Positions 6,829 to 57,906 are shown, counted from the stretch's first letter. The stretch is 64,000 nucleotides of DNA from a virus (IMGVR_UViG_3300001531_000060:1-64000), one strand, 5' to 3'. Notes: a model not told the origin generated them from the letters alone. Program-made: numbers and translations.

Positions 6829-7086
6829 CTAATCTTTTTCTTTCTCTAATCTTTTCTTTAAGATCTCTTTTGCTTTATTTACTTCTACTTTATTAGATAA
6901 ATTTTCACCGGCTCTATTAATATAGAAAGTAATCTTTTGAATTGCTTTACCTATATTACCTTTTGTTTGCTGAAGTAATACTCTAACAATCGTAGACGCT
7001 GGTTTTGTAAATAAATCTTTTGGAGTAGAATGTTTTGGCTCTACATCAGATAATTGTTTTTCTTTTGCAGTTAACCATCTAGACAT
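6829..7086 (-). CDS. MSRWL-tag protein, DUF3175-like
   Basis: Begins MSRWLTA; ITFYINRAGENL resembles the DUF3175 signature LxFYINRAGxNL (from memory). Confidence 0.55.
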   Translation of the reverse strand: MSRWLTAKEKQLSDVEPKHSTPKDLFTKPASTIVRVLLQQTKGNIGKAIQKITFYINRAGENLSNKVEVNKAKEILKKRLEKEKD

Positions 7087-16688: not shown

Positions 16689-16709
16689 ATTATGAGTGTT
16701 TTGTCAAGG
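16689..16709 (-). promoter_or_regulatory. repeated phage motif, variant copy upstream of the tail-fibre cluster
   Basis: Minus strand CCTTGACAAAACACTCATAAT. Confidence 0.6.
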
Positions 16710-41425: not shown

Positions 41426-41674
41426 ATGTCTAGATGGTTAATTGCAAATGATATGAAAGGTGTAGATCAAGATCCAAATACATTTCAAAACGAAGTTAAA
41501 GTAGTTGAGCAAAAACAAAATAGTTTGTCTGAACATCCGAATGAAGGTAAAGATGTTGAAGTTAAAATAAGTTTTGATGCGAAAGAAAATAATCCGGAGG
41601 GCAAAGATATCAGTAATGTTCCTATAGGAATATCCCCAAACGGACAGCAACAAACAAAAGATGCTATTGCGTAG
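41426..41674 (+). CDS. MSRWL-tag small protein
   Basis: Begins MSRWLIAND; AGGAG RBS. Confidence 0.7.
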   Translation: MSRWLIANDMKGVDQDPNTFQNEVKVVEQKQNSLSEHPNEGKDVEVKISFDAKENNPEGKDISNVPIGISPNGQQQTKDAIA

Positions 41675-41695
41675 CCTTGACATTTTTATCATAAT
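41675..41695 (+). promoter_or_regulatory. repeated phage motif (candidate late promoter)
   Basis: CCTTGACATTTTTATCATAAT. Confidence 0.75.
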
Positions 41696-41730
41696 ATCTA
41701 GATTTTTAAATATTTATTAGGAGTTTTCAT

Positions 41731-43266
41731 ATGGGTTTATTTGATAATTTTAAAAAGATATTAGCTATAGATGAATCTGATTTTGTATCTGAAGATGAAT
41801 TAGGATCTAATGAACAGTCAGATTTTGATGACGAAGAAGATAATATAGAGTTATTTGAAAAAAATGTAATAAGTAAGATTTCAAATATGAAACAGTTATT
41901 ATCTGCTGGAAAAGTTGATTTAGATGCTTTGAATTCTGAGTTGAAAGAGATTGAGAATTATATTGATTCTGCAGATTATATAAGTTCAAATCTAAAATTA
42001 GATTTTAAAGATCAAATAAATATAACAATTAATAGTTTAAATAAAGAAACAGAACTTCAGTTACCAGATTATATTTTAGATATTGGTCGCAAATATTATT
42101 GTTTGTCAGACTATATTGAAAATAATTTAGCTAATTTAGAAACTTCAAAATATAATTTAGAAAGTTTACAGAGTGCATTAAAAAGTCTTACAAATGAAAT
42201 GCAAAGAATTTTATATTCATATTCTTTCCAATCAGATATTGAACTTTCTAAAAATGCAATAAACGAATTTGAAAGTATATTCGATAATATAATAGCAAGT
42301 ATGCTAGATAAAGATTCTGCTATTGGGATTAATAACAAATTAAATGAGATTACAAATCAGGATGTAGAAGAATTTTTAAAAGTTCGTTTTAGTAATTTGC
42401 TTTCAAATATCGGTTCAGATAGTTGGTCATTTAAATTAAAAACTTTATCTAAGCATTTAACCAAACTTGAAATGCTTTGTTCTTCTGTTATAGAACTTTT
42501 AGATAAAGAAGATATGAAAGCACCTTTAAGAAATAAATTATATGATATCTTATGTTCTGAACAATATATAATTACTAATATTTGGCGTAATAGAAATGAC
42601 AGAGATTCACTATTTAGAACATTAGCTTATAATTTTGAAGGTGCATTTGTAGCGTCTGATTACACACAGAATTCTGAAGTAAGACAACTTTTAAAAGAGT
42701 TAACTACTAAATTAACTGATATAACGAAATCGGCTAATATTAGAGATATAAACTATAATAAGATTATTAGCGAAATAAATTTAGCTGGTATTAAAACCGC
42801 TATAAAAGAATTAAATTATTATTTTGTTAATAATGCTGAGAAGTTTAAAACATTAGTAAATAAATTAAACAATATAGGAAATGTTAACGGTAAGTTTGTT
42901 GCATCAAAACGTGAATACAATGAGATTAATCAGATCTGGAATTCAATTTTCAATAAATTATATAAAGTTGTAGAACCTATCTATAGTTTGAAAAATAAAG
43001 TGAAAGACAATGTATCTGATATAAATATAACATTAGGTTCAGGACAATCTTTAACAGCGCCCGAATTAGTAGATTTTTTATGTGAATTTAGAGATTTTGT
43101 ATTTAAAGAATCAATGAGTCCAGATTTAAGTGTTAATATAGAATCTCAAACAGATGCTGTACAACCGATGGAAGTAAGTGAAAAAGTTTTGAATAATTTT
43201 AAATTAACTTATTCACAGTTAGTTAATTTTGAGAGAAAAATAAAAACGTATAATAATATTAATTAG
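41731..43266 (+). CDS. large helical hypothetical protein (possible virion protein)
   Basis: 511 aa, starts MGLFDNFKKIL, in head module. Confidence 0.6.
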   Translation: MGLFDNFKKILAIDESDFVSEDELGSNEQSDFDDEEDNIELFEKNVISKISNMKQLLSAGKVDLDALNSELKEIENYIDSADYISSNLKLDFKDQINITINSLNKETELQLPDYILDIGRKYYCLSDYIENNLANLETSKYNLESLQSALKSLTNEMQRILYSYSFQSDIELSKNAINEFESIFDNIIASMLDKDSAIGINNKLNEITNQDVEEFLKVRFSNLLSNIGSDSWSFKLKTLSKHLTKLEMLCSSVIELLDKEDMKAPLRNKLYDILCSEQYIITNIWRNRNDRDSLFRTLAYNFEGAFVASDYTQNSEVRQLLKELTTKLTDITKSANIRDINYNKIISEINLAGIKTAIKELNYYFVNNAEKFKTLVNKLNNIGNVNGKFVASKREYNEINQIWNSIFNKLYKVVEPIYSLKNKVKDNVSDINITLGSGQSLTAPELVDFLCEFRDFVFKESMSPDLSVNIESQTDAVQPMEVSEKVLNNFKLTYSQLVNFERKIKTYNNIN

Positions 43267-43280
43267 ATAAGGAGTAGATT

Positions 43281-43628
43281 ATGGAAGATATAAAAAAGGA
43301 AGCAAGATTTAATTTATTTGCAGAGTTCGATGATGTTGGTGATGACAATACTTGGGAAGTTGTTGAAGATGAGAACGGTAATAAAGTTCTCGGAAGAATG
43401 GCATCAGCAAAAGATGTGACAAATAAAGAAGCAATTAAGGCCGGTGGAGCCTGGGCATATAAAGAAGGAGATAATGTTTATATTGATACAGGTGATACGA
43501 TGCTTCATAAAGCAACTATTTTAGACAGAAGAGCTAACTTAAAATACGGTATTGTTTGTGAAGGAAGTTCTTTAGTTCATGAAATAGAAGAAGCAGATAT
43601 TATAGATGTAGATGAAAATTTATTTTAA
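43281..43628 (+). CDS. acidic hypothetical protein
   Basis: 115 aa, AAGGAG RBS. Confidence 0.6.
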   Translation: MEDIKKEARFNLFAEFDDVGDDNTWEVVEDENGNKVLGRMASAKDVTNKEAIKAGGAWAYKEGDNVYIDTGDTMLHKATILDRRANLKYGIVCEGSSLVHEIEEADIIDVDENLF

Positions 43629-43641
43629 TAGGAGTGAGAAT

Positions 43642-44910
43642 ATGTCAGATTTAAATAAAAAAGAAGCTGGTATACAAGAAATTACACAGATGCTCTTTAA
43701 TGTGAATTTTGCAGGAACAAATTCAAAGGAAGAGTTTACAGAATTACAAAATAACATGATTAAGATGTTGAGTCAACATCAGTATTCTTACTCTGATATT
43801 GAAAATTATTTTATTGGTTGGGGCTATCAAGTTCCTATGATAAAAGAAATTTATAAACATCTTACAGGATTAGATCCGGAAAGAGTTAATTCAACAGATT
43901 ATTTATTGAATATGCCTGGATGTATTCCTGGATTTAATTATGGTTGGGGAGAAGGTAAAGGTAGTAAATATAAATATGTATTTATTATAGGATATAAACT
44001 CGGATTCGGTGTGTTTGGTCAAATCGATGATTTGTCTAGAGAACTTATACAGTATACATTGGATCTTGAAGAAGCATTAAATGTTTTAAATAAAAATGCA
44101 AAGGATATAAAGACTTGCAAATCTATTATATCTGTTCCTGAAAAAGATATTAATAAGAGTTTGGAAGTACCTTATCTTTGTACAGATGCTCCTATAACAC
44201 AGAAGGTTTTATTCAAAGGTAGAACCGCTTCTCTTGCAAAGAGTATTGATTCTTATCAAATGCAACCTCATGAAGTAAGAGCAATGTTAAGAGTTGCTTA
44301 TGATCAAAATGAAATTACAGCACAAGAACACAAAGACTTGTACGATTATTATTTAAAGAGATATGCAGAGGAAGATGAAGCTTCTGATATAACAAAAGAA
44401 CTCGAGAAAGAAGATATTAAAACAAATCAAACAGATAAAGATTTACAAAAAGAAGTAGTTAATGAAGATAAAGCTGCGTTTGATTTGGATAAAATTGCTT
44501 TTTACATAAAAGAAATCAATAAGTATTTTGAAGATAATCTGTCAGAATTATTGTCAAAAGCTTTGATAGAAGTTAAAGAAGTAAAGTATGTTAATAAAAA
44601 TGTAGATAATTCAATCGAAAAAACTCCGGAAGTTCCGGGACAAAATCCAATTCAATATTTTAATAAAGCTGCAAAACTTTCTGTAGTTTTAGGTGTTACT
44701 TGGAATGATAAAGCAAATTTAGGACAACAGTTTGTTCTAGCGATGTTCGCTATAGATGATAAAGGCAATGTTGAAACAGACGGTAACTTCAAAGGTGTTG
44801 ATGAAGAAATTTATCCTTTGAATGCATCTGGTCTTGAAAATTATTTTTCTAAACTTGAAGAGTTAGATAAATCTGGAAATGTAAAAGATGATGTAAAGGA
44901 AGAAGAATAA
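43642..44910 (+). CDS. hypothetical head-module protein (start re-called at MSDLNKK)
   Basis: AGGAG RBS before ATG 43642. Confidence 0.6.
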   Translation: MSDLNKKEAGIQEITQMLFNVNFAGTNSKEEFTELQNNMIKMLSQHQYSYSDIENYFIGWGYQVPMIKEIYKHLTGLDPERVNSTDYLLNMPGCIPGFNYGWGEGKGSKYKYVFIIGYKLGFGVFGQIDDLSRELIQYTLDLEEALNVLNKNAKDIKTCKSIISVPEKDINKSLEVPYLCTDAPITQKVLFKGRTASLAKSIDSYQMQPHEVRAMLRVAYDQNEITAQEHKDLYDYYLKRYAEEDEASDITKELEKEDIKTNQTDKDLQKEVVNEDKAAFDLDKIAFYIKEINKYFEDNLSELLSKALIEVKEVKYVNKNVDNSIEKTPEVPGQNPIQYFNKAAKLSVVLGVTWNDKANLGQQFVLAMFAIDDKGNVETDGNFKGVDEEIYPLNASGLENYFSKLEELDKSGNVKDDVKEEE

Positions 44911-45104
44911 TGTCTAGATGGTTGATTACATCAGAAATCAATAAATCAAATGAGATAGATAACAACTCTAATAAAAGTTTAGAAGATAATCAAGTTATGG
45001 AAGCGTTACCAACAGGTGAGTTAGGGAATGGTACATTTGAAGGTAATGAAAATAAATGGAAAGAAGAACAAGAAAAGAATAAGGTACAAATAAATGCAAA
45101 ATGA
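44910..45104 (+). CDS. MSRWL-tag small protein
   Basis: Begins MSRWLITSE; TAATG overlap with the upstream stop. Confidence 0.7.
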   Translation: MSRWLITSEINKSNEIDNNSNKSLEDNQVMEALPTGELGNGTFEGNENKWKEEQEKNKVQINAK

Positions 45105-45285
45105 TTTACTATATATAATAGAAGATATAGAAAAGCGTGTATATTACTTATCTCAAGAATTAAATAAAAATAATATTAATGCAAATATAGATATAAGTAA
45201 TATACAATATGCTTTAATAAATGGTATAAAGCCAAAGGTAAATGAATACACTGAAAAAATGAAAAAATTAGAAAATGAAAATTAA
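45094..45285 (+). CDS. hypothetical protein
   Basis: 63 aa, overlaps the upstream stop. Confidence 0.45.
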   Translation: MQNDLLYIIEDIEKRVYYLSQELNKNNINANIDISNIQYALINGIKPKVNEYTEKMKKLENEN

Positions 45286-45302
45286 ATTAAGGAAGATTAC
45301 AT

Positions 45303-47039
45303 ATGCCAAATATAAAAGAGATAAAAAGTAGTAAGGGTTTTAATAGAAGAGCAAATACAATAATGATGGATGGCGGAATGGGAATGATGGGTAACCCAAA
45401 CAGTTCCATTAACCGTGTTCCTATGATGTACGTTGATCCTTTAATGGATCCAGTATTGATGATATTTCCTCGTGAAAATGATACACAGTTAAACGCGAGA
45501 TTAAGACATTATTATATGTACAATCCTTTGGTACATTCTGTAATAGATTTGCATTCATCTTATGCTTTAAGTGATTTTGAGTTAAGATGTGATGACAGAG
45601 AAATTGAACAATATTATAATGATATAAAAGATAGATTAGATATTTTAACTATGATGATTAATCTCAATAGAGATTTTTGGTTATTAGGTAATGCTTATAT
45701 GTATGGTGATTGGGATGAAACAAATGCTGAGTGGATAAGATTTAACCAATTCCCTCCGGAAAATATTGAGATACACAGATCATATGCTGGTGGAAATGCT
45801 GTATATTTTCTTAAGCCAGACGAATCAACAAAGAAAGTTTTACAATCAAGTAGTGCTGCAGATCAAGCAGTTGCTTCAACTATACCAATAGAATTTAGAA
45901 ATTCAATTTTAACTGGAACGCCTTATCAATTAGCAAATGAAAGAGTTATTCATTTTGCAAATAGACCTGCTCAATATTCATTACAAGGCGAATCAATACT
46001 TAAATCTTGTTTAAAAGATTTAATGTATGAGGATAAGTTAAGATTATTACAATTTACTTTTGCAGATAGAGCAATGTATCCAATTAAACATTGGAAAGTT
46101 GGATCAGAAGCAAAAGGTTGGTTTCCAGATAAAAGACAATTTAATGAAACCAAAGCATTAATTATGGCTGGAATAAATGATCCGGATTATAATTTAATAA
46201 CACATCCATTTGTTAATCTTGAAATAAAAGACCAACATGGTAATTGGCAAGATTTGAAAGCAGAATTTGATTTTGCACAAAAGAGAATAATGATTGGATT
46301 GTTCTGTAATGACGCAATGCTTGGTGGCGAGGCCGGACCCTATGCAAAAGATATGATTAATATGAAAGTTGTTATGCATAGATATTTAATGAACAGAAAT
46401 TTACTTGAAAGACTTATAAGAGAAAAAGTATTTTTACCAATTGCAAGAGAACATGGATTGATAAAAAGAACTCAAGCTGAAGTTCAACATAAATTAAGAT
46501 TAAGTTCATCCTATAATAATTTTATATTACCTAAATTCTTTTATAAAGAAAGAGTTAATCTTCTTAGTTCACAATCAGAACAAGAAATGTTGCTTAGACT
46601 TAGAGATAAAAAAGAAATTCCATTTGAACTTGTTGCAGATATGTTTGGTTGGGATATGGATCAACTTCAAGAGAAGTTTAATAGAGAAGCTGATACAGTA
46701 TTTGATCCATTATATAAAGCAGCCAAAGATGATTTAGCTAAAGAAAAAGCAATGAGAAATAGAATTTTGAATGGTGATTTTAAAGATAATAATTATAAAG
46801 ATTTGGCAAAGACAAAAGAAAATCCACAAGGTAAAGCAGGTAGAGAAACAGGTGGTGCAGCTAATGGTGGTGGAAGACCTCCGTTATCGGAAGATGAATT
46901 AAAGACAGAAGAACCTGCAATACTTCCAAATGGTGAAGGTGATTTAAGTCCAAGAGGTAAGCAAGAAGAAACAGGTGAATTGCCTGCTCCGGAAGGCGGT
47001 GGAGATTTAGGTGATATATTAAGTGGTATCGGAGGATAG
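45303..47039 (+). CDS. portal protein
   Basis: NPLVHSVID, FWLLGNAY, PPENIEI, VIHF, GESILKS pattern; between TerL and protease. Confidence 0.82.
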   Translation: MPNIKEIKSSKGFNRRANTIMMDGGMGMMGNPNSSINRVPMMYVDPLMDPVLMIFPRENDTQLNARLRHYYMYNPLVHSVIDLHSSYALSDFELRCDDREIEQYYNDIKDRLDILTMMINLNRDFWLLGNAYMYGDWDETNAEWIRFNQFPPENIEIHRSYAGGNAVYFLKPDESTKKVLQSSSAADQAVASTIPIEFRNSILTGTPYQLANERVIHFANRPAQYSLQGESILKSCLKDLMYEDKLRLLQFTFADRAMYPIKHWKVGSEAKGWFPDKRQFNETKALIMAGINDPDYNLITHPFVNLEIKDQHGNWQDLKAEFDFAQKRIMIGLFCNDAMLGGEAGPYAKDMINMKVVMHRYLMNRNLLERLIREKVFLPIAREHGLIKRTQAEVQHKLRLSSSYNNFILPKFFYKERVNLLSSQSEQEMLLRLRDKKEIPFELVADMFGWDMDQLQEKFNREADTVFDPLYKAAKDDLAKEKAMRNRILNGDFKDNNYKDLAKTKENPQGKAGRETGGAANGGGRPPLSEDELKTEEPAILPNGEGDLSPRGKQEETGELPAPEGGGDLGDILSGIGG

Positions 47040-47041
47040 AG

Positions 47042-47263
47042 ATGAGTAGATGGTTACAGGCAGAATATACAGGTAAAGTGTTATTTGATTTAATAGATAA
47101 AAAAATTACTAGAGATGATCCTAATTTTATGGAAGCGTTGAAAGAAGCGATAGAATATAAAGGGCTTGAACAAGCTCACACACTTATTGATGATGGAATA
47201 GCTACACAAGAAGAAGTGAGTCAAGCTATTACGGAATTGAATAAAAGTAACATGGAGGAATAA
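47042..47263 (+). CDS. MSRWL-tag small protein
   Basis: Begins MSRWLQAEY. Confidence 0.7.
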   Translation: MSRWLQAEYTGKVLFDLIDKKITRDDPNFMEALKEAIEYKGLEQAHTLIDDGIATQEEVSQAITELNKSNMEE

Positions 47264-47264
47264 T

Positions 47265-47396
47265 ATGTTTAAAAGATCTGGAGTAGTTACTCCAATGAAG
47301 GTTTTGAAAAAGATTACATCTGAAGATATGCCAAGTAAGAAGATGAAGAAAGTTGCTGAAGATGAGCAACAAACAAAAACTACTAAGGAAAAATAA
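47265..47396 (+). CDS. 43-aa basic peptide (not in ORF track)
   Basis: GGAGG RBS; MFKRSGVVTPMKVLKKITSEDMPSKKMKKVAE...; fills the gap between two MSRWL genes. Confidence 0.5.
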   Translation: MFKRSGVVTPMKVLKKITSEDMPSKKMKKVAEDEQQTKTTKEK

Positions 47397-47397
47397 T

Positions 47398-47682
47398 ATG
47401 TCTAGATGGTTAGTGCAAGCTTTTTACAATGAACCAAATACTATTGAGATTGATAAACCTAACTCAAGTGATGAGAAAGCTAATAAAAAATTGCAATATA
47501 TTTTTGATATGTTAGAAAATATACAAGCATCAGATAAGTATTATACATACGAAAAAACTGAGTTAGATGATAAATATATATTAACAATTAAACGTGAACG
47601 CACACCAAAATCCGGTGAAGAAACAATGCCTATGGTGAAAGATATATTAAATAGATATAAGATCAATTATAGGGAGATATAA
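47398..47682 (+). CDS. MSRWL-tag small protein (start re-called at 47398)
   Basis: Begins MSRWLVQAF; AAGG RBS. Confidence 0.7.
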   Translation: MSRWLVQAFYNEPNTIEIDKPNSSDEKANKKLQYIFDMLENIQASDKYYTYEKTELDDKYILTIKRERTPKSGEETMPMVKDILNRYKINYREI

Positions 47683-47683
47683 A

Positions 47684-48448
47684 ATGTTTAAAAGATTGTG
47701 TATGGCAGAACCAATAGAAGTCTATGCTTCAGCAAATGATATGCTTGAAGGTTGGTATGGATTTAATAGACAAGCTTCAAAAAAGATAGTAAAAGCTTTT
47801 GAGTTTGATCCGGATAACTATTTGTATTATAGAAACAGAGCTATTACAGCGGATGAAAGAAATGCAAATGGAGATATATTTCCTCACGATGAAATAAAGA
47901 AAGCATATACTACTTTTATAGGAAAAGGTATATTTTATAATCATAATTCTGATGATCCTAATAACTCTATGGGAATTATATTGGATGCTAATTTTGTTGA
48001 ACCAGCACAAAAACATGCTTATGTAGAATTACTTTGTGCTATTGATAAACAATTAGCAGAACAAAAATATCCTGGATTGTTACATAGAGTTGAATCAGGA
48101 TTGGTTTCAGGTACTTCGATGGGTACATTTGCAGGAGCTGCACAGTGCTGTATTTGTGGAAACTATACAACTACATTAGAAGGATTATGTGAACATATGA
48201 ATCCGGATGATATGCATTATTGTAAAGGTAAACTTATAAATGCTTCTACAAATGAGTATGGTGCAGAAATTAATTACGGATTATGTTTCTGTGAAGATAG
48301 TATTGTTAATGAACCAGCAGATCCAACTGCACATATTTTCCAAGTTTATGCAAGTACAAAAGATAAATTAGATGTCAATAATCCAAATAAAGAAATAATT
48401 GCAAGTTTAATAAATACTTTACAAACAATGTTAAAGGTATTGAAGTAA
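47684..48448 (+). CDS. prohead (capsid maturation) protease with Zn-finger insertion
   Basis: IFYNHN (His), GTSMG (Ser), CCICG..CEH, EDSIVNEPADP; downstream of portal. Confidence 0.78.
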   Translation: MFKRLCMAEPIEVYASANDMLEGWYGFNRQASKKIVKAFEFDPDNYLYYRNRAITADERNANGDIFPHDEIKKAYTTFIGKGIFYNHNSDDPNNSMGIILDANFVEPAQKHAYVELLCAIDKQLAEQKYPGLLHRVESGLVSGTSMGTFAGAAQCCICGNYTTTLEGLCEHMNPDDMHYCKGKLINASTNEYGAEINYGLCFCEDSIVNEPADPTAHIFQVYASTKDKLDVNNPNKEIIASLINTLQTMLKVLK

Positions 48449-48460
48449 AATAAGAAAATA

Positions 48461-48560
48461 ATCATTATCAGGTAGCATTAACCTAGCTAGTTAATGAGAT
48501 AATAGTATACCTTGAAATACTAAGCTGATAATGATATAATATCTTTCAAGGAGATAATTA
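48461..48560 (+). promoter_or_regulatory. structured leader upstream of endonuclease gene
   Basis: ATCATTATCAG/CTGATAATGAT closing stem with two inner hairpins. Confidence 0.55.
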
Positions 48561-50216
48561 ATGCAAAGAGATGATTATACAAAAGAAATATTAATAAATA
48601 TTATAAAAGATTTGAAACAGAGAAATTTAGAATTTGATTTACAAGCTAAAGTTTTTGGGTTTTCTAAAAAGAATAAGTTAATTTATAAGCAAGTTAATAG
48701 TCAATATCCAAATGCATTTATTAATGTTTCTGAATTGCATAAAGCATTAAATTGTGATATGGATGAATTATTTTGTAAGAATTGTGGTAAACGCGTAACG
48801 TTTATTAGTGAGAAACGATCTAGACAATTTTGTTCAGTATCATGCAAGTCAAAATATATGTTAAAGACAGGTAAAGTTGTTAATCCATCTTTACGTTCAG
48901 AATGTGTAGCTAAGAGAAATAGAACATTTATAGATAAATTTGGTTGCAATCCTTCACAATTATTAGAAATTAAAAATAAAAAAGAAGCAACATGTTTTAA
49001 ACATTTTGGTGTGAAGTTTCCAGGTCAAGTTGAAAGTGGGAAATTAAAGTCTAAACAAACTTGTCTAGAAAAATATGGTGTAGAATATTACAATCAGTCA
49101 GAAATTGCTAAGGAAAAACAAAGACAATTTAATTTACTGAAGTTTGGTGTTGAAAATATGAATCAAGTGCACATTAAGAACTATAATAATTTGCATGAGG
49201 ATTATGTTAGAAGCAATTTCATAAAAGATAATAAATTTTTAATACAAGAATTTCAAGCTTACTTTAATCTACAATATAAGGCAGCGTCACAATATAAGAA
49301 ACAGTTTAATATACAAGAACAAAATAAATTAGATGTACAAAAAACACAGCAAGAGCTATACAGGTTTATAAAATCTTTAAATATAAGTAAAGTTAACTAT
49401 AATGATAGAAGTGTTTTAAATGGTAAAGAATTGGATATTTACATACCAGATAAGAAATTAGCTATAGAGTTTGATGGATTAATGTTTCATTCATTTGGTA
49501 AGTCAAAGCATACAATATTTAATAACTTTATTGAAGAAGATCGGAATATACATTTATCTAAAACTAATGTTTGTCAAGAAAAAGGAATACAATTACTCCA
49601 TATATTTGAAAACGAATGGTTAACTAAAAAAGACATATGGAAGTCTGTGATTAAAAATAAACTTGGTTTGATTGACAAAAAAATATATGCAAGAAAATGT
49701 GAAATAAAGAAAGTTCAGAATTCAGAAAAGGAGACCTTCTTAAATACAAATCATTTACAAGGTAGCTGTCAATCAAGTATAGATATAGGTTTGTATTACA
49801 ATAATGAATTAGTATCGTTAATGACTTTCGGTAAGTCAAGATTCAATAAAAAATATAAATATGAATTACTTAGATTTTGTAATAAATTAGATATAATTGT
49901 AGTTGGTGGAGCTTCCAAGTTATTAAGCTACTTCAGAAAACATTATAACGGTAATATTATAAGTTACGCAAATAGACGTTGGAGTAACGGTGACTTATAC
50001 CAAAAATTAGGATTTAGTTTTGTAGAAGTGTCGGAGCCAAATTACTTCTATTTTAATCTTAAAGATAGAGTACTTATAAGTCGTATACAGTTTCAAAAAC
50101 ATAAATTACATAAAAAATTAAGTACATTTAATTCTAGCCTTTCAGAAACACAAAATATGTACAATAATGGTTATCGTAAGATTTATGATTGTGGTAATTA
50201 TACATTTAGTTTGTAG
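48561..50216 (+). CDS. putative homing endonuclease (Hef-like PD-(D/E)xK core with C-terminal accessory domain)
   Basis: KYGVE/KFGVE repeats, ELDIYIPDKKLAIEFDG, YARKC...NHLQG...VVGGASKLL...YQKLGF. Confidence 0.72.
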   Translation: MQRDDYTKEILINIIKDLKQRNLEFDLQAKVFGFSKKNKLIYKQVNSQYPNAFINVSELHKALNCDMDELFCKNCGKRVTFISEKRSRQFCSVSCKSKYMLKTGKVVNPSLRSECVAKRNRTFIDKFGCNPSQLLEIKNKKEATCFKHFGVKFPGQVESGKLKSKQTCLEKYGVEYYNQSEIAKEKQRQFNLLKFGVENMNQVHIKNYNNLHEDYVRSNFIKDNKFLIQEFQAYFNLQYKAASQYKKQFNIQEQNKLDVQKTQQELYRFIKSLNISKVNYNDRSVLNGKELDIYIPDKKLAIEFDGLMFHSFGKSKHTIFNNFIEEDRNIHLSKTNVCQEKGIQLLHIFENEWLTKKDIWKSVIKNKLGLIDKKIYARKCEIKKVQNSEKETFLNTNHLQGSCQSSIDIGLYYNNELVSLMTFGKSRFNKKYKYELLRFCNKLDIIVVGGASKLLSYFRKHYNGNIISYANRRWSNGDLYQKLGFSFVEVSEPNYFYFNLKDRVLISRIQFQKHKLHKKLSTFNSSLSETQNMYNNGYRKIYDCGNYTFSL

Positions 50217-50266
50217 TCTTAAAAATTTCATAAAATATTAAAATACTATATAAAAATTGTAGAAAC

Positions 50267-50287
50267 CCTTGACAAAAGTATCATATT
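50267..50287 (+). promoter_or_regulatory. repeated phage motif (candidate late promoter)
   Basis: CCTTGACAAAAGTATCATATT. Confidence 0.75.
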
Positions 50288-50323
50288 ACACTTGTATATA
50301 TAAGTATTTTTTTGGAGGATACT

Positions 50324-51025
50324 ATGGCTGATCAATTTAACAGATTAGCACAACATTATTCAAATTATTGGAAAGATAAAGGAGAGAATGCTCCTGCTAT
50401 CAATTTTGATACAAAACAAATAGAAAGAACAGCTGAGCAAGCTTTTAGATCAGCAGCTGAATCTGATACATCCGATAAAGATTCTGCTCCATCTGTAGCT
50501 GATAAAGGCGCAAGTAAACCAAAAGATAAGGGTTTGAATCTTGCCGGATTGTTTTCAAATATAGATGAGATGATTGAAAAAGCAGCTGAGAATAAGGTTA
50601 AAAGAATTTTGGATAGAATAATAGATGATAAGTTACGTTCTGAATATAGTAACGATTTATCTTTATTTGAAAAATCAATGGCAAATAAAGTACAAGAAAA
50701 AGTTAAAAGTATGTCTCCAAAATTTCTTGAAGGTTTAAAAACAGTTGCTCCTGATGTAGGAAAAGGTACAGGAAGTAAAACACCTACTTCATTTACAGAA
50801 GGTGTATTAGATGAAGTTGATGAAGAAATAGTTGATAAGAAAGCTTCTGTAGAAGTATTTCCAGGGATTTATGTAAAGGCTTCTAAAGAAGATGAAACAG
50901 TTGGTGAAGTATTTGTGAAAGACAATGACTCATTACAAAAAATGAGTTATGTTGTTAATTTACCAAAAACAAATTCTAAAAAAGAATATATAGAAGAATT
51001 ACAAAATACATTTGAATCATTATAA
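50324..51025 (+). CDS. head-associated hypothetical protein (start re-called at MADQF)
   Basis: GGAGG RBS before ATG 50324; charged, upstream of scaffold. Confidence 0.55.
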   Translation: MADQFNRLAQHYSNYWKDKGENAPAINFDTKQIERTAEQAFRSAAESDTSDKDSAPSVADKGASKPKDKGLNLAGLFSNIDEMIEKAAENKVKRILDRIIDDKLRSEYSNDLSLFEKSMANKVQEKVKSMSPKFLEGLKTVAPDVGKGTGSKTPTSFTEGVLDEVDEEIVDKKASVEVFPGIYVKASKEDETVGEVFVKDNDSLQKMSYVVNLPKTNSKKEYIEELQNTFESL

Positions 51026-51141
51026 AATAATAGAAAATCTAGAACAAAGAAGAAAAAAGAACAGAGAAAAATAGAAAGGTAATAGAAGTTATTTTATATG
51101 GTCTAAATTATATTTAAATTTAATTAAATAGGAGATACTAA

Positions 51142-52341
51142 ATGTTTGAATTATTTTATAAAGCAGGTAAATCACTTGCTGACTCTTTCTTTATTGGAAG
51201 AGAAGGTAAAGATGACGTATTAGTTATAAGTGCTTCTGAAGTTTTGCCGTTAGAAATGCAAAAGAAAATCGAAGCAGCTGAAGAAGAATTAAATAAGGTT
51301 GAAGTAGAAAATACAGTTGAAGGAACACCTGCAACTGAAGATAAAGCTATTGAAAATTTAAATGAAGCAGAAGTTAAATTAGATAGCGTAAAAGAAGATA
51401 TTCAAGAAGCAAAAGGTCATGAAGAAATGGAAAAAGCTGAAGAAGTTGTTGAAGCTTCTAAAGTTGATGTAGATGCTATATATAAAAAAGCAGGTGTACC
51501 TACACCAGAATTTATAGCAAAACAGATTGCTTCTGTATGTAAAGATTTTAAAGGTTTCGAACAATTCTGTAAAGAAGCTAAAGCAAACAAAGCTGAAATG
51601 GTTAAAAAAGCTTCATTAAAGAAAGAAGCTGCTAAAGAAGATGAGACAGTATTTACATTTAATAAAGAAGAAGATGGTAAAAATAAACCAGCAAAAGCAA
51701 CTGAAGGTGCGATAGTTTCTGTAAATGAAAAAGAAGCTAAAGCAGATGCAGGTAAGGGTGTTAAAGACGCTAATGCAGTTTCTTCACCGGTTAAATCATA
51801 TTTTGGTAGATTGCCAGGAAATGGTGGTGGAGATGCAGTAGAATCTATAAATAGACAATCTTCATTGAAAGAACAATTCCTTAAACTTACAGCAGAATTA
51901 GATGAAATGAAAAAGAAAGATGAAGAAAAAACTGAAAAGTTAGGAAAGATGGAAGATGAAAACAAGAACTTGAAAGAAGAAATTTCCAATGGAAACAAAG
52001 ACAAAGACATCAATGCAATTATCTCTGAAATCAAGAAAGTAGTTAAGGTACAAAAAGAAAATGTTTTCAAAGATAAACTTGTAAAAGCAGATGAAAAAGC
52101 TTTGAAAGTTGTATTAGATGTTGTAAAAGAAATTGCAAAACTTTCTGATGGAGAAAAAGCTGATAAAGACGCAGCAAGTCTTTTCGGTGGAGAAGCAAAG
52201 AAAGATAACAAAAAAGAAGAAGTTGTAGATTTCACAGAAGTAAAAGCATCAAGAAGAATGCCTGGACAAAACATACCACAAGTATTTTCACAATATAACG
52301 GTGGAGATGTTTCAGGATTAAATTCATTATTCGAAGACTAA
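51142..52341 (+). CDS. putative capsid scaffolding protein
   Basis: Highly charged E/K coiled coil, between protease and capsid genes. Confidence 0.65.
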   Translation: MFELFYKAGKSLADSFFIGREGKDDVLVISASEVLPLEMQKKIEAAEEELNKVEVENTVEGTPATEDKAIENLNEAEVKLDSVKEDIQEAKGHEEMEKAEEVVEASKVDVDAIYKKAGVPTPEFIAKQIASVCKDFKGFEQFCKEAKANKAEMVKKASLKKEAAKEDETVFTFNKEEDGKNKPAKATEGAIVSVNEKEAKADAGKGVKDANAVSSPVKSYFGRLPGNGGGDAVESINRQSSLKEQFLKLTAELDEMKKKDEEKTEKLGKMEDENKNLKEEISNGNKDKDINAIISEIKKVVKVQKENVFKDKLVKADEKALKVVLDVVKEIAKLSDGEKADKDAASLFGGEAKKDNKKEEVVDFTEVKASRRMPGQNIPQVFSQYNGGDVSGLNSLFED

Positions 52342-52376
52342 TCTAGTCTTAAAAATTTAAAAGGAGAATATAAATC

Positions 52377-52880
52377 ATGGGTATAATGTATTCAGTTCAA
52401 GAAGATAATTTAACAACCGACTTTGGTATATCATCTTTGTTCCCTACAACAATTGAAGATAATACTAAAGTTTTCAAAGGAACAGCAGTAATAGCAGGTC
52501 AATGCTTGGAAAACACAACTGAAGGTTTGGTATTGGCAAATGCTTCTTCTACAGTTTATGGTTTGGCAAAAGAATCAGTAAACGTTGAAGCAAATGTAAA
52601 CGAAGTTTCAGATAACGGATGGGGCATTTTCGGTTCAAAGAAAATAACAGCTTGTATGTTTGGTGTATACAGCGTTAAAAACTTTGAATATACGAAAGGT
52701 GATGGCGATGTTGTAGAATTTACAGCTATAGATACAAATGCTATAAATGCAAATACTACATTAGGTGTAGCTTTGGCTTCTAATGCTAGTGGAAACATTA
52801 CAGTAGCATCTGGTGATGGCTTCGGTACATTGCTTGCTGTATCTGCAGACGGAAAAGAAATTCAAGTATTTATAAAGTAA
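52377..52880 (+). CDS. putative capsid decoration/cement protein
   Basis: Gly/Ala/Thr-rich beta protein immediately before the capsid gene. Confidence 0.55.
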   Translation: MGIMYSVQEDNLTTDFGISSLFPTTIEDNTKVFKGTAVIAGQCLENTTEGLVLANASSTVYGLAKESVNVEANVNEVSDNGWGIFGSKKITACMFGVYSVKNFEYTKGDGDVVEFTAIDTNAINANTTLGVALASNASGNITVASGDGFGTLLAVSADGKEIQVFIK

Positions 52881-52914
52881 TTATTTAAAAAATTTTAAAA
52901 GGAGATAATAAATC

Positions 52915-53895
52915 ATGGGTACAATAGATAATATATCATTATGGGGCGATACAGCATTAGCAAGAAAAGCTTCAGTTAATGCATCTGCTACACCTGTATC
53001 AATGGAAGCAAAAGAACAAAAATTTAACATGTACTGGAATGCACCAGGCGGATATCAAAGAATAGCTTTCGCATTGTCTGGTCCGTTGAAAACAAGATTG
53101 GATTACGTTGGTGTTGGAAGAAAACTTTTGATGGTTGATACCATACCTACCGGAGATATTCCTGTATACGATATGGATATGCCAGAATTTGGTGCTGTTA
53201 AAATAGCTGCTAGAGGTCAAGCTCCAGTATTTGAACAAGGCATCAAGAGAATTGGAATTCCTACATTTGAAGTAACAGTAAATGAAGTTATTAAGAAACA
53301 AGAATTAGCTGTAAGAAAATATCCTGTATTCGACAGAGCAAAAGAAAGAGCTGCAATAGCTATGGCTATAGCTGAAGATGACATGATATTTGATTTGGTT
53401 AAATCAGCAGCAGTTAAGAATCCTAACCCAGCTACAATGGCTACATATGGTTCTGCTACAACATCAATAACAAAAGCAGATTTTGCTGAAATGTTCGGTG
53501 ATATAACTGAAAGACAGTTGATTGCTAAAACATATTTGTTAGGTGCAAAAACATATGCAGATATATTGAAATGGAATTCTCAAGATTTGGATCCAGTATC
53601 TTTGAACATCCAATTGGAAACAGGAAATTTTGGTTCTATATTTGGTGTTAGAGCTATTGCTTCTACAAGACTTGATAAAAACTATGGTTATGATACAAAC
53701 GGAAAGAATCAACAACCAGTATTTACATTGACAACTCCTGATAAACTCGGAAGATTGCCAGAAAGAAAAGCTGTTGAAGTTTCCATATTTGATAACATTC
53801 CTAAACTTCAGTATGATATAATTCCTTACGAAATAATCGGTATGGGTATTTATAACTGTGCTGGTGTATCTGGAAGAGTTAGAAGTTTGGCTTAA
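52915..53895 (+). CDS. major capsid protein (HK97 fold)
   Basis: RLDYVGVGRKLLMVDTIPTGDIPVYD, PTFEV, AEDDMIF; strong RBS, biased codons, followed by a terminator. Confidence 0.85.
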   Translation: MGTIDNISLWGDTALARKASVNASATPVSMEAKEQKFNMYWNAPGGYQRIAFALSGPLKTRLDYVGVGRKLLMVDTIPTGDIPVYDMDMPEFGAVKIAARGQAPVFEQGIKRIGIPTFEVTVNEVIKKQELAVRKYPVFDRAKERAAIAMAIAEDDMIFDLVKSAAVKNPNPATMATYGSATTSITKADFAEMFGDITERQLIAKTYLLGAKTYADILKWNSQDLDPVSLNIQLETGNFGSIFGVRAIASTRLDKNYGYDTNGKNQQPVFTLTTPDKLGRLPERKAVEVSIFDNIPKLQYDIIPYEIIGMGIYNCAGVSGRVRSLA

Positions 53896-53908
53896 TCAGT
53901 TTAGTATT

Positions 53909-53943
53909 AAAAAGCTACCGAGGAATCCTCGGTAGCTTTTTTT
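53909..53943 (+). terminator. intrinsic terminator after capsid gene
   Basis: AAAAGCTACCGAGG-AAT-CCTCGGTAGCTTTT plus T run. Confidence 0.9.
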
Positions 53944-53950
53944 ATATACC

Positions 53951-53971
53951 CCTTGACATTTATATCATATT
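53951..53971 (+). promoter_or_regulatory. repeated phage motif (candidate late promoter)
   Basis: CCTTGACATTTATATCATATT, immediately after the terminator. Confidence 0.75.
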
Positions 53972-54021
53972 ATAGATAGATTGTAGATGGGCATAAATTA
54001 TTTTTATTTGAGGAATGAACT

Positions 54022-54429
54022 ATGAATAATGAAAAAGACGTTAAAGATACAGGAATAGTATCACAAGAATCAATTAATAGAGCAATTGAAGACACAACGC
54101 AGTCCGAATATTATCAACAAAATAGAATTCCTTTACTAACAGGTGAATATAGAAAGGAAGCATTTCTTAAATTAAAAGGATTATTTTTAAAAGAGTTATA
54201 TAAAGCAGTAGATGAAGAAGAAAAAGCTTGTAGAAAGGCTGATTTAGAGCCACAAATGAAAGGTGATAAGCTTAAATATATAGAAGACATGGTTGAGACA
54301 TTTGACAATATGTTTCAACTAGAAGCACTAGCACAGTATTTATATCAAGAAAATATTATACCGACATTAGACGAAGTTAATACAAGAGCAAATAAACTAA
54401 ACGAAAATCTCGGTAAACTTGAACTTTAA
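54022..54429 (+). CDS. hypothetical protein
   Basis: 135 aa, GAGG RBS. Confidence 0.6.
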   Translation: MNNEKDVKDTGIVSQESINRAIEDTTQSEYYQQNRIPLLTGEYRKEAFLKLKGLFLKELYKAVDEEEKACRKADLEPQMKGDKLKYIEDMVETFDNMFQLEALAQYLYQENIIPTLDEVNTRANKLNENLGKLEL

Positions 54430-54443
54430 TTTTGGAGTATATC

Positions 54444-54779
54444 ATGCTTAAGAAAACTGTAAAATTTTTAAAAGATGTTAAGACAATTATTTGGGCAATC
54501 GTATTAAGTGGAACAGTTTTAATATTTATTTATGGAACGTATCTTAAAGTTGCAGAAACGGTACCGACAAAAGTATATGCAATGGAACAAGATTTAAATG
54601 ACGTTAAGTATCGTGTAACTGATCTTGAAACTGAAAAACTTATTATAAATAAAGACTTAAGCGTGATGCAAACAGAATTAAAAGAGATAAAGGCACAAAT
54701 TGCAGAGAATCAAAAAGAAACAAGAGCAGCTTTAAAAGAGATAAATAGAGATGTAAAAGACATCCTTAAAACCATATAA
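54444..54779 (+). CDS. membrane-anchored coiled-coil protein, possible holin
   Basis: One TM helix (IIWAIVLSGTVLIFIYG) plus coiled coil, near endolysin. Confidence 0.45.
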   Translation: MLKKTVKFLKDVKTIIWAIVLSGTVLIFIYGTYLKVAETVPTKVYAMEQDLNDVKYRVTDLETEKLIINKDLSVMQTELKEIKAQIAENQKETRAALKEINRDVKDILKTI

Positions 54780-54836
54780 TTATTGTTGATAAATGACAAC
54801 ACAGCTATCACCTAATTTCACATTGTAGTTTAGATA

Positions 54837-54924
54837 ATAGTGGCTAGGGTAGCTCCCGAAAAAACAGCAACTCACTGTTCTGCCACTATAAATTATATGA
54901 GTAATATTTTACAGGAGTGTAAAA
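54837..54924 (+). promoter_or_regulatory. structured RNA leader of homing endonuclease gene (copy 2)
   Basis: Three-way junction covarying with 37516-37597. Confidence 0.65.
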
Positions 54925-55575
54925 ATGACTAAATTAAATTTAGAAGTAGGACAAAAGTTTGGAAGGTGGACAGTTTTAGAAATTTCAAAGAAAATAAAAG
55001 GTCATGGCAATATTTTAGTAAGATGTAAATGTGATTGTGGTACAATAAAAGAAATTAGTCACTACACATTATTAAACGGTAAATCTGTTAGTTGCGGTTG
55101 TTTACGAAAAGAATTGTTAAGTAATAGAGAAAACGCTCACCATAAAACAAATACAAAGCTTTATCAAATTCATGCAGCAATGAAAGCTCGTTGTTTTAGT
55201 AAAAATCATAAAAATTATAAACAATATGGTGGTCGTGGGATAACAGTTTGTGATGAATGGAAAAATGACTTCGTGGCTTTCTATAATTGGGCAATGAGCA
55301 ATGGTTATAAGGAAGGTCTTACAATAGACAGAATAGATGTGAATGGTAATTACGAGCCAAATAATTGTAGATGGGTTACTAGAAAAGAGCAGGCAAATAA
55401 TACTAGAAAAAATTGTTTTATTGAATATAATAATGAAAGACATACTATTGCTGAATGGTGTGATATTTTAGGTATAACATACAGCAAACTATTTAGCAGA
55501 CTACGTAAAGGTCTTCCTCTAGATAAATGTTTTTACCCTGGTAAAATATCAAATAATGGAATAGATTTACTATGA
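54925..55575 (+). CDS. HNH homing endonuclease
   Basis: CKCDCG, YGGRGITVCDEW, LTIDRIDVNGNYEPNNCRW..EQANN. Confidence 0.9.
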   Translation: MTKLNLEVGQKFGRWTVLEISKKIKGHGNILVRCKCDCGTIKEISHYTLLNGKSVSCGCLRKELLSNRENAHHKTNTKLYQIHAAMKARCFSKNHKNYKQYGGRGITVCDEWKNDFVAFYNWAMSNGYKEGLTIDRIDVNGNYEPNNCRWVTRKEQANNTRKNCFIEYNNERHTIAEWCDILGITYSKLFSRLRKGLPLDKCFYPGKISNNGIDLL

Positions 55576-56036
55576 TATATTTAGCACCTTCGTTCACTCT
55601 CGATGAGCTATTAACTACTTCACATAAGGATTTACTTCCTAAACAAAATGAGGAAGTGAAGCCTTATGTGAATAACTTATATATACTTGCCAATTATATA
55701 CTTCAACCAATCCGTAATTACTATAAAGTACCTATAACAGTTACAAGTGGATTCAGAGGAAAAGCATTAAATGAAAGAGTTGGTGGAAATAAAACCAGTC
55801 AACATTGTTTAGGTGAAGCAGTAGACTTTATAGTTAAAGGCAAGACAGTTGATGAAGTATTTGAAGATATTAGAACAGGTAAGATTGATATTTGTTATAA
55901 ACAGCTGATTAAGGAAAAAATATCTGGAAAGTTTTGGATTCATATAGGGATGGTCAAGATACCCTTTAAACCTAAAGATAAGTATTTGCAGAAGTTAACT
56001 ACAACTGATGGTAAAAAATATACAGAAGTAAAATAG
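55572..56036 (+). CDS. endolysin, peptidase M15A-like
   Basis: TSGFR..LN..VGG..SQH..GEAVDF...WIHI. Confidence 0.85.
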   Translation: MIYLAPSFTLDELLTTSHKDLLPKQNEEVKPYVNNLYILANYILQPIRNYYKVPITVTSGFRGKALNERVGGNKTSQHCLGEAVDFIVKGKTVDEVFEDIRTGKIDICYKQLIKEKISGKFWIHIGMVKIPFKPKDKYLQKLTTTDGKKYTEVK

Positions 56037-56057
56037 AATAAAGGAGAAAAATGAACA

Positions 56058-56774
56058 ATGAAAATTAGATCAAACATGGACAGAGTTTGGAGTTTGGCAG
56101 GAATTAGATTTGAGCCAGGAATGGTTATTACATTTGATATTTTGAAATGTAATGACTTAAGACAATTAAAAGCAGTAGTTGAAGAAATTAGAAAAGGTAA
56201 TATAACGGTAGTTGAGCAGGATGACTATTTTAAACCAGCTTCAATTACAAAGGTTGAACAACCACAAGTAATTAAAAAAGAATCTCAAGAAGATATAGTT
56301 GTAGTTACAAGAGGTGGAACATTTACAGATGAGATACCGAAAGATGTTTTGACTGAGAATACAATACAATCTGTTCCGGTAACTATAGATGTAGAGAAAC
56401 AATCAGAACCAGTAGTTGGTGAAGGTAATATAAAAAATGAATCTTCAACGGAAGCCGGATTTGTAGTGCTTCCGGGAAAGAAACCAGGTGAAGGACAATT
56501 AAAATCAGTTAGTGAAGTCATACAAGAAAAGACAGACGAAATTGCAGATGTGTTAAAAGATGCTGCAAAGGATTTAGAAGAGCTTAACAAAAAAGAAGAA
56601 GTAATAGAGCAAGTTCCAGAAGACGTTGATAAGATACTGAAGATGAAAGCTAACGAAAGAAAATTGTATATAGCTAAATTAGATGATAAAGAGTTGTTAC
56701 TTAAGATAAGTAAATATACAAAAGTAAAAACTATATTAAATATAATTAATCAAAGGTTGGAAGAACTAAAATAA
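56058..56774 (+). CDS. hypothetical protein
   Basis: 238 aa acidic. Confidence 0.6.
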   Translation: MKIRSNMDRVWSLAGIRFEPGMVITFDILKCNDLRQLKAVVEEIRKGNITVVEQDDYFKPASITKVEQPQVIKKESQEDIVVVTRGGTFTDEIPKDVLTENTIQSVPVTIDVEKQSEPVVGEGNIKNESSTEAGFVVLPGKKPGEGQLKSVSEVIQEKTDEIADVLKDAAKDLEELNKKEEVIEQVPEDVDKILKMKANERKLYIAKLDDKELLLKISKYTKVKTILNIINQRLEELK

Positions 56775-56790
56775 AGGAGAACAATGAAAA

Positions 56791-57222
56791 ATGAAAAGTA
56801 TTAATTTGAGAGTATTTAGAAGAACAAACAATAGTATATCATGTTTATTTAATGATAATGCAGTATCAGGTATTAAGCTTGAGGATTTAAAGATTTATGA
56901 TATAGAGGATAAGGAAAAGAAAAATCCTTTGATATATAAGATTGGGGTTGATCAAGAAACACAAACCGTTCAAGTCGTACTTGATCATCAAATAAATAAG
57001 TTAGATGCAAATAAAACATACGTATTTGTTTTTGATTTTAAAACATTCGATGTAAACATAAAAGTATATCCTTCAGAGGTATTACCTTTGTTTGAGAAAG
57101 ATTCTGTTAATAAAAATCAGCACGTAATGGGTTGGGTAGAGTCTGAGAGAAAATGGGTGAAGCTTAAAGCAGTTAAAGATGCTTCTGGAGATTATGTACT
57201 CGCAGTTAAATCTGTTAAATAG
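56791..57222 (+). CDS. hypothetical protein
   Basis: 143 aa, AAGGAG RBS. Confidence 0.6.
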   Translation: MKSINLRVFRRTNNSISCLFNDNAVSGIKLEDLKIYDIEDKEKKNPLIYKIGVDQETQTVQVVLDHQINKLDANKTYVFVFDFKTFDVNIKVYPSEVLPLFEKDSVNKNQHVMGWVESERKWVKLKAVKDASGDYVLAVKSVK

Positions 57223-57231
57223 GAGTTTAAA

Positions 57232-57417
57232 ATGAGTAGATGGTTGCAAGCATCTTTAAAAAAGAAATCCAATTTATATAAAATGAAAGACAAATATGGA
57301 CATTATTTCAAATGTCCACCTATAGAAGCAGCGAGTGAAGAAGAAGCAAGAATAAAATGTGCCAATAGTACTATAAATTTAACACCTGATGATGTGGTAG
57401 CTGAAGAAGTAAAATAA
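57232..57417 (+). CDS. MSRWL-tag small protein
   Basis: Begins MSRWLQASL; AGGAG RBS. Confidence 0.7.
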   Translation: MSRWLQASLKKKSNLYKMKDKYGHYFKCPPIEAASEEEARIKCANSTINLTPDDVVAEEVK

Positions 57418-57438
57418 TTGAAAATAAGGATTTTAACA

Positions 57439-57906
57439 ATGAGTAGATGGTTAATTAAAGCAGAAACTCAATTAGAATTACCTTTAGGTACAGAACACGT
57501 ATATTATCCAACTTTGGTTAGAGAAATTAGTTTTAAAGATAAGATGTCAAAGTTGAAAGATAAGAATATACAATATGTACAGAAAGTCATTTACGATTGT
57601 TTAAATGATGTATCTAATAATAAAATTTCAGATAGATTTTATGATGATATAGAAGCAGACTTAATAGAGGGCGCTTTTAAAGAATTTGCAAAGAAGTATG
57701 CAGATAGTAACTATAAAGTATATGATGTAACTATTAGTGAAGTAGAGAAAGAGAATCATAATATTATAAAAGATAATACAGAGAAAAGATATTTAATATG
57801 TCCTTTTGTAAGTCAAACAAAGCTTTATGATATATCTGAATTTAATACGTTGGTAGAAGCTCTTTCTATAAAAATATTCTATCATTTGAAGTCACTTAAT
57901 AAGTAG
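57439..57906 (+). CDS. MSRWL-tag protein (start re-called at 57439)
   Basis: Begins MSRWLIKAE; AAGGA RBS. Confidence 0.7.
   Translation: MSRWLIKAETQLELPLGTEHVYYPTLVREISFKDKMSKLKDKNIQYVQKVIYDCLNDVSNNKISDRFYDDIEADLIEGAFKEFAKKYADSNYKVYDVTISEVEKENHNIIKDNTEKRYLICPFVSQTKLYDISEFNTLVEALSIKIFYHLKSLNK

Follow-up and report, generated by a model that had tools for sequence, protein, structure and literature searches.

An N-terminal MSRWL peptide shared by unrelated proteins of uncultured rumen jumbo phages, a candidate head-loading tag

In phage T4, an N-terminal propeptide of ten residues, the capsid-targeting sequence (CTS), suffices for packaging and is cut off by gp21 after a glutamate; gp67 and gp68 are core proteins of the same phage (PMC9026906). 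The internal proteins of T-even phages have diverse bodies, and the conserved targeting sequence is all that they have in common (PMC3012670). Three reports on phiKZ-like phages describe many packaged non-structural proteins and a cleavage after Glu with a small residue nearby (PMC5694885, PMC7411985, PMC10052503). Here, we describe a stretch of 64,000 nucleotides (nt) of viral DNA (IMGVR_UViG_3300001531_000060:1-64000; hereafter the window), in which seven small open reading frames (ORFs) with otherwise unrelated products start with the same five residues, Met-Ser-Arg-Trp-Leu (MSRWL). An earlier assessment of the DNA, termed the sequence-only reading in the following, had interpreted this N-terminal tag as a signal analogous to that of T4, loading accessory proteins into the head for injection.

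The contig to which the window belongs has 72,999 bp and 28.7% G+C. Megablast revealed no close relative among deposited phages. The close relatives in IMG/VR comprise the genome G001 (300,445 bp, rated 98% complete) and the fragments G002 and G003. The contig is therefore a fragment of a jumbo phage of about 300 kb. Related contigs from ENA and Logan apparently originate from the ruminant gut, judged from the sample names. The bearers of the tag are a clade of uncultured rumen jumbo phages.

The tag in the window and across the clade

Six-frame translation together with the DNA confirmed that the ORFs starting at 41426, 44910, 47042, 47398, 57232 and 57439 on the plus strand and at 7086 on the minus strand, all of them picked out by the sequence-only reading, begin with ATG-Ser-Arg-Trp-Leu. 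In this order, they encode proteins of 82, 64, 73, 94, 61, 155 and 85 amino acids (aa):

41426..41674, plus strand: tagged ORF, 82 aa, acidic and of low complexity, directly after the large terminase gene
44910..45104, plus strand: tagged ORF, 64 aa, acidic, its start overlapping the stop of a 432-aa gene upstream of the portal gene
47042..47263, plus strand: tagged ORF, 73 aa, directly after the portal gene
47398..47682, plus strand: tagged ORF, 94 aa, directly before the prohead protease gene
57232..57417, plus strand: tagged ORF, 61 aa, basic, after a conserved 143-aa gene
57439..57906, plus strand: tagged ORF, 155 aa, alpha/beta body, the sole tagged family present in every relative
6829..7086, minus strand: tagged ORF, 85 aa, basic (isoelectric point, pI, of 10), in an operon shared with a tail-fibre-like gene

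Beyond the seven starts already claimed, a motif scan of the whole window in six frames yielded one further SRWL, located in a nine-codon stretch at 58260, and the remaining 9 kb of the contig contained no further tagged ORF. Based on the amino-acid composition of the sister genome (S 0.063, R 0.030, W 0.009, L 0.083), the chance of one ORF starting with MSRWL is about 1.5e-6; seven such starts among about 120 ORFs therefore exclude chance. The sequence-only reading had further described the bodies as dissimilar, the Ser codon as TCT in four and AGT in three ORFs, the Leu codon as TTA or TTG, and an Ala as following soon after the pentapeptide. These descriptions agree with our counts: the codons are as claimed, Ala occupies position 7 or 8 in all seven proteins, and after removal of the first 10 residues the proteins form seven separate BLASTP families. 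None of the seven had a significant match in Pfam or PHROG, and a set of 17 tagged proteins compared with Pfam and PHROGs gave only sub-threshold noise.

The ORF at 47398 has an in-frame ATG upstream, within the preceding gene. The tagged ATG is favoured at this site because it stands directly after the preceding stop, with a Shine-Dalgarno-like site, and because relatives have conserved it. Upstream in-frame start codons inside the preceding gene were observed at several tagged genes (window 47353-47397, G002 and the loci L148, L157 and L165), so that automatic gene callers may extend tagged genes and hide the tag. The two tagged genes following the portal gene are separated by a basic 43-aa ORF (47265-47396), whose conservation extends to G001, G002 and L162, a more distant relative. 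Like the protease, this ORF starts with Met-Phe-Lys-Arg, either by coincidence or as a possible second small shared start.

Across the clade, 44 distinct tagged proteins of 57 to 425 aa were collected, none of them annotated. The first 35 were assigned to 18 body families by BLASTP, and contigs of more distant relatives contributed at least seven others, so that the tag is borne by at least 25 unrelated body families. The extended consensus reads M-[STG]-[RG]-W-[LF]-x-x-[AS], often followed by Glu. Orthologous sites in G001, G002 and G003 retain the tag, with Thr replacing Ser2, Gly replacing Arg3 or Phe replacing Leu5 in some variants. L162, whose protease is 68% identical, carries eight tagged genes in 20 kb, and the still more distant fragments L164-L166 carry one to three each. 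The motif is kept in orthologues as well as in remote homologues; its loss in related phages, which the sequence-only reading had named beforehand as evidence against its proposal, did not occur. Of the 44 tags, 34 have Ala or Ser at position 8 and 21 have Glu at position 9, the latter compared with a background of 6.5%. In about 620 kb of clade sequence translated in six frames, [STG]-R-W-[LF] was found 53 times directly after a start Met and once internally.

A full-text literature search for the tag string returned nothing relevant, and a search of the ESM Atlas with the 425-aa tagged protein matched only unnamed viral clusters. Scans of IMG/VR with the two most frequent nucleotide versions of the tag recovered multi-tag contigs only from this clade. 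The same scans also recovered loci from unrelated phage groups with 31-39% G+C (L041-L120 and L168-L240), each with one family starting with MSRWL; the numbers of these single-gene matches fit chance, and no second tagged gene was located nearby.

The codons locate selection at the level of the peptide. Among the 44 tags, position 2 is encoded by AGT in 23, TCT in 12, ACT in eight and TCA in one; Arg by AGA in 38 and AGG in four; and position 5 by TTA in 24, TTG in nine, TTT in eight, CTT in two and CTA in one. The two classes of Ser codons are connected only via Thr, which is itself seen as a variant of the tag. Because synonymous codons vary freely while the residues hold, we conclude, in agreement with the sequence-only reading, that selection acts on the peptide and not on a DNA or RNA motif. 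A role of the stretch in translation initiation, as a downstream box, a coupling signal or a structure at the start codon, could be read from the tight packing of all tagged genes behind the preceding gene and from the short, purine-rich mRNA stretch. Yet synonymous and conservative changes occur at every degenerate position, the pattern reaches position 8 only as amino acids, and most other genes of the same operons do without the stretch; on these grounds an RNA-level motif was rejected, and a translational function is hardly credible. A twin-arginine translocation (Tat) or Sec signal peptide, for which an Arg-Arg pair and then a hydrophobic core of at least 12 residues were taken as the criterion, was rejected as well: the tag has a single Arg, polar or acidic residues follow after position 8, and the grand average of hydropathy (GRAVY) is negative in all 44 tagged proteins.

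Tagged genes as exchangeable inserts in morphogenesis operons

The recognisable genes near the tags encode the large terminase, the portal protein, a prohead protease, the major capsid protein, an M15 endolysin and several homing endonucleases. Together with a promoter-like motif, the features of the window that bear on the tag are:

38550..41423, plus strand: large terminase (PHROG terminase), with an intein-like insert at about 38813-39969
45303..47039, plus strand: portal protein (PHROG portal, E 1e-45; 29% identical to the portal of Bacillus phage G)
47684..48448, plus strand: prohead protease, 254 aa (PHROG head maturation protease)
51142..52341, plus strand: 399-aa protein with 14% Glu, between the protease and capsid genes, noted for its composition and position
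52915..53895, plus strand: major capsid protein (PHROG major head protein, E 4e-32)
6201, 16689, 35919, 41677, 50269, 53953 and 60192, both strands: exact copies of the promoter-like motif TTGACA-7 bases-CATAWT

The sequence-only reading had placed six of the tagged genes among those for terminase, portal, protease and neck, and the tagged genes do sit in morphogenesis operons. The motif TTGACA-7 bases-CATAWT has seven exact sites in the window, with 2.8 expected at one mismatch. Such sites head the plus-strand morphogenesis blocks, and the minus-strand site at 16707 (listed from 16689) heads the operon which holds the tagged gene at 7086 and the tail-fibre-like gene; all seven tagged genes of the window are located in operons headed by the motif. 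Its spacer is unusually short for a sigma-70-type promoter. Of the six tagged genes in the 98% complete genome G001, five are located no more than 16 kb from the head/neck module.

A module map across the relatives, anchored on conserved genes, revealed that the conserved head, lysis and neck genes are interspersed with variable inserts, of which the tagged genes are the main kind, beside homing endonucleases. The insert sites are located after the terminase, on either side of the portal gene, before the protease, around the endolysin and before the 155-aa gene. The number of tagged inserts varies between relatives at five or more intergenic sites, and the interval from portal to protease is a hot spot with one to four tagged genes, depending on the relative. 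The individual inserts of the window differ in their distribution: the ORF at 41426 is present in all relatives covering that site, the ORF at 44910 is absent from L162, and the ORF at 6829..7086 has an orthologue at 296 kb in G001.

The comparison of the window with G002, which is 95% identical, resolved the exchange at nucleotide level. Homology stops at 47411 and 57246, 13-14 nt into tagged genes, and restarts just ahead of the next gene, with different bodies in between. At the 47398 site G002 has the same tag on a different 120-aa body, and at the 57232 site a 209-aa body takes the place of the 61-aa one. A chimeric tag was observed in L160:3192-3665, a gene of the 155-aa family. By comparison with L148:9510-9986 and L148:10001-10465, this gene opens with the 27-nt tag variant of the neighbouring cassette type and continues with a body of the 155-aa family. 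Since the gene bears the tag variant of the neighbouring cassette, recombination has evidently taken place between tags, and the conserved DNA of the tag may secondarily serve as an in-frame joint at which bodies are swapped or deleted.

These joints raise the question whether the first codons are kept alike merely by recombination at short 5' ends, or by descent from one duplicated ancestor, with no reader of the peptide. The homology breakpoints fall exactly behind the tag, the 27-nt variant is nearly identical in DNA on several unrelated bodies, the chimeric L160 gene bears the variant of its neighbour, and a few body families show weak mutual similarity, all of which such a by-product would produce. 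It would not account for Ser in two codon classes without a silent interconversion, for varying Arg and Leu codons beside almost invariant Trp and Arg residues, for a tag which is invariant in homologues at 28% identity, or for Ala or Ser at position 8; moreover, fifteen nucleotides varying at four positions are a poor recombination substrate. Codon variation, tag invariance at 28% identity and the residues at position 8 led us to reject a pure recombination scar, and we regard a by-product of this kind as very unlikely. The window and its relatives carry an N-terminal tag which is under selection at the peptide level and which is borne by interchangeable cassettes in morphogenesis operons.

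Other mobile elements were noted in the same region. Three free-standing homing-endonuclease genes (HNH and GIY-YIG-like) lie between head and tail genes at 48561-50216, 54925-55575 and 59159-60187. They use the same type of intergenic site as the tagged cassettes, and the first two are missing from G001 and G002. The terminase insert of about 1.16 kb (38813-39969) is missing in G001, where its flanks are contiguous, and the equally long terminase orthologue of L162 matches Intein_splicing; the insert is probably an intein.

The putative partner of the tag

The protein encoded at 57439 differs from the other tagged proteins in its distribution. All 16 full-length close homologues retain the tag, and a profile search of 1.8 billion representatives recovered homologues at 28-48% identity; a metagenome scan with the same profile added no contigs beyond those already collected. 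M1, R3, W4, A8 and Q11 are among the invariant columns of the joint alignment, and since the tag columns are invariant the tag is the best-conserved part of the protein. The structural model of the 155-aa protein had a predicted local distance difference test (pLDDT) score of 86 overall, above 90 in the body and below 50 for residues 1-14. Owing to these low values, the tag, disordered in this one model, is best described as a flexible extension on a folded alpha/beta body. For this model, neither Foldseek against PDB nor VIA-align wide returned a convincing fold (best Z 4.6).

The 57439 gene belongs to the neck/tail region, where it has a conserved 143-aa gene on one side and a conserved 401-aa gene on the other. 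This location of a universally conserved family with a well-folded body would suit a tag which docks its bearers elsewhere in virion assembly, on the portal exterior, the neck, the tail or a shared chaperone, where they would act as helpers or minor decorations. Such docking would also be consistent with the presence of all tagged genes in morphogenesis operons and with the one tagged gene which shares its operon with the tail-fibre-like gene. On the other hand, the strain-specific presence and absence of unrelated bodies of 57-425 aa is unusual for structural parts, the densest hot spot of tagged genes extends from portal to protease, and the 155-aa model has no counterpart among known neck or tail folds, although this last comparison is inconclusive. 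Taken together, docking outside the head appears decidedly unlikely.

A reader outside the virion was considered as well, for which the tag would be a degradation signal (for instance of ClpX type, or a pro-N-degron uncovered by trimming or by loss of the start Met), a target of a modifying enzyme, as in RiPP-like leaders, or a contact point for a host protein which all of the accessory proteins have to reach. Methionine aminopeptidase removes the start Met when the second residue is small. Position 2 of the tag is always Ser, Thr or Gly, small residues which permit this removal, and Arg-Trp-Leu would be destabilising if exposed, according to the bacterial N-end rule. No ClpP homologue was found in the 300-kb relative, and the sole radical S-adenosylmethionine (SAM) signal in this genome was sub-threshold (17.8 bits) and about 50 kb away from the nearest tagged gene. 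A non-virion reader would leave the concentration of tagged genes in the head module and in late operons unexplained, and it is not apparent why 25 or more accessory proteins should be destabilised. We therefore consider it unlikely.

The reading which we favour is a signal resembling the T4 capsid-targeting sequence in function but unrelated to it in sequence, by which proteins would be loaded into the head; by analogy with T4 this appears possible, if somewhat short of an even chance. The first eight to nine residues would act as a short linear motif for docking, placed on a free and flexible N-terminus, and would address many unrelated, late-expressed accessory proteins to one common receptor, most likely the assembling prohead core of scaffold, protease and portal complex. 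The tagged proteins would then be enclosed in the head, and some of them would be trimmed by the gp21-like protease and leave with the DNA at the next infection. The 399-aa protein (51142..52341) had no family match; from its composition and position it is a candidate scaffold or core protein and possibly the receptor of the tag.

Two further findings support the T4-like proposal of the sequence-only reading, a gp21-like protease and bodies which turn over behind a constant tag. The residues His87, Ser145 and His171 of the prohead protease are invariant in the alignment. For its AlphaFold2 (AF2) model, the top fold match in PDB was T4 gp21 (5jbl; E 8e-4, probability 1.0), followed by herpesvirus assemblins. 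The phage thus encodes a prohead protease of the gp21/assemblin family, nearest to T4 gp21 according to the model, and this enzyme is a candidate processor of the tags. P0029, a protease homologue from a Joint Genome Institute (JGI) metagenome, has 401 aa and carries Hint/intein domains; an intein therefore appears to interrupt the prohead protease in some relatives.

The proposed cleavage at MSRWLx(1-2)A was not supported. Glu is enriched at position 9, yet it occurs in only about half of the tags. Only tags with Ile or Val three residues before Glu fit the T4 rule L/I-x-E, and about half have no Glu at position 9. No cleavage rule was derivable for the protease; small-residue-x-Glu sites near the N-terminus of the capsid protein prove nothing on cleavage.

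Several further points weigh against loading into the head. The 44 tags have no uniform cleavage motif, and the protease model is of moderate quality (pLDDT 70, template modelling (TM) score 0.35-0.5). Thirty-five of the 44 tagged proteins are acidic, with a median pI of 5.2, as opposed to the basic internal proteins of T4. No tag was found on the recognised head proteins, namely the protease, the scaffold candidate, the capsid protein and the portal protein. The 155-aa family looks more like a fixed structural or assembly protein, and because it is conserved in every relative, folded and encoded among neck/tail genes, it is a poor fit for disposable cargo. The more far-reaching proposal of an undescribed capsid-loading and ejection tag for at least 25 interchangeable accessory proteins, plausibly involved in counter-defence, with the DNA of the tag as in-frame exchange joint, is rather doubtful.

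If the tag is a head-loading signal, T4-style addressing of cargo would be a general strategy of large phages which evolved independently, and the unannotated tagged proteins would be likely effectors of the first minutes of infection and prime candidates for counter-defence. A portable tag of five to eight residues would also provide an easy means of packaging foreign proteins. With a different reader, a strictly N-terminal and near-invariant Arg-Trp motif on so many unrelated proteins still points to a common partner.

Comparison with known loading systems

Encapsulin cargo-loading peptides resemble the tag in that a short flexible terminal peptide suffices to address diverse cargo to the interior of an HK97-fold shell. 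In general they occupy the C-terminus, follow a Gly/Leu-rich consensus and undergo no processing by a protease; encapsulins, moreover, are not viruses. The phiKZ-like giants (phiKZ, 201phi2-1 and SPN3US, with proteases of the gp175/gp245 type) are jumbo phages like those described here and possess a protease of the gp21 family. Their cleavage rule A/S/G-x-E fits only a minority of the tags. To our knowledge, phiKZ-like propeptides are long and have no common N-terminal peptide, and their targeting is not ascribed to a short tag.

The closest known system is the CTS of T4, present on IPI, IPII and IPIII and as propeptide on Alt, gp67 and gp68. The differences are considerable. Apart from the terminal Ala-Glu of some tags, no similarity to the targeting part of T4 is apparent by eye, and the tag is defined by an invariant Arg-Trp core. 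It is borne by at least 25 families instead of a handful, and the proteins are mostly acidic, those of T4 basic. A consistent L/I-x-E site is missing, and one tagged family is a conserved core gene. The lineage of the phage is unrelated to T4: its portal protein matches only Bacillus phage G and cluster-C mycobacteriophages, at 21-29% identity, with Bacillus phage G nearest (29%).

The likenesses concern architecture and genetic behaviour. In both systems a short peptide of about ten residues at the extreme N-terminus is common to otherwise unrelated proteins, and bodies differ between close relatives while the tag stays, as at the internal-protein loci of T-even phages. Both systems comprise late genes and a prohead protease of the gp21/assemblin fold, and many of the tags end in Ala-Glu, as does that of T4. 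The T4 map has gp67 and gp68 encoded between portal and protease, the site at which small tagged genes are located in the window. The MSRWL tag is at most an analogue of the T4 capsid-targeting sequence and not a homologue.

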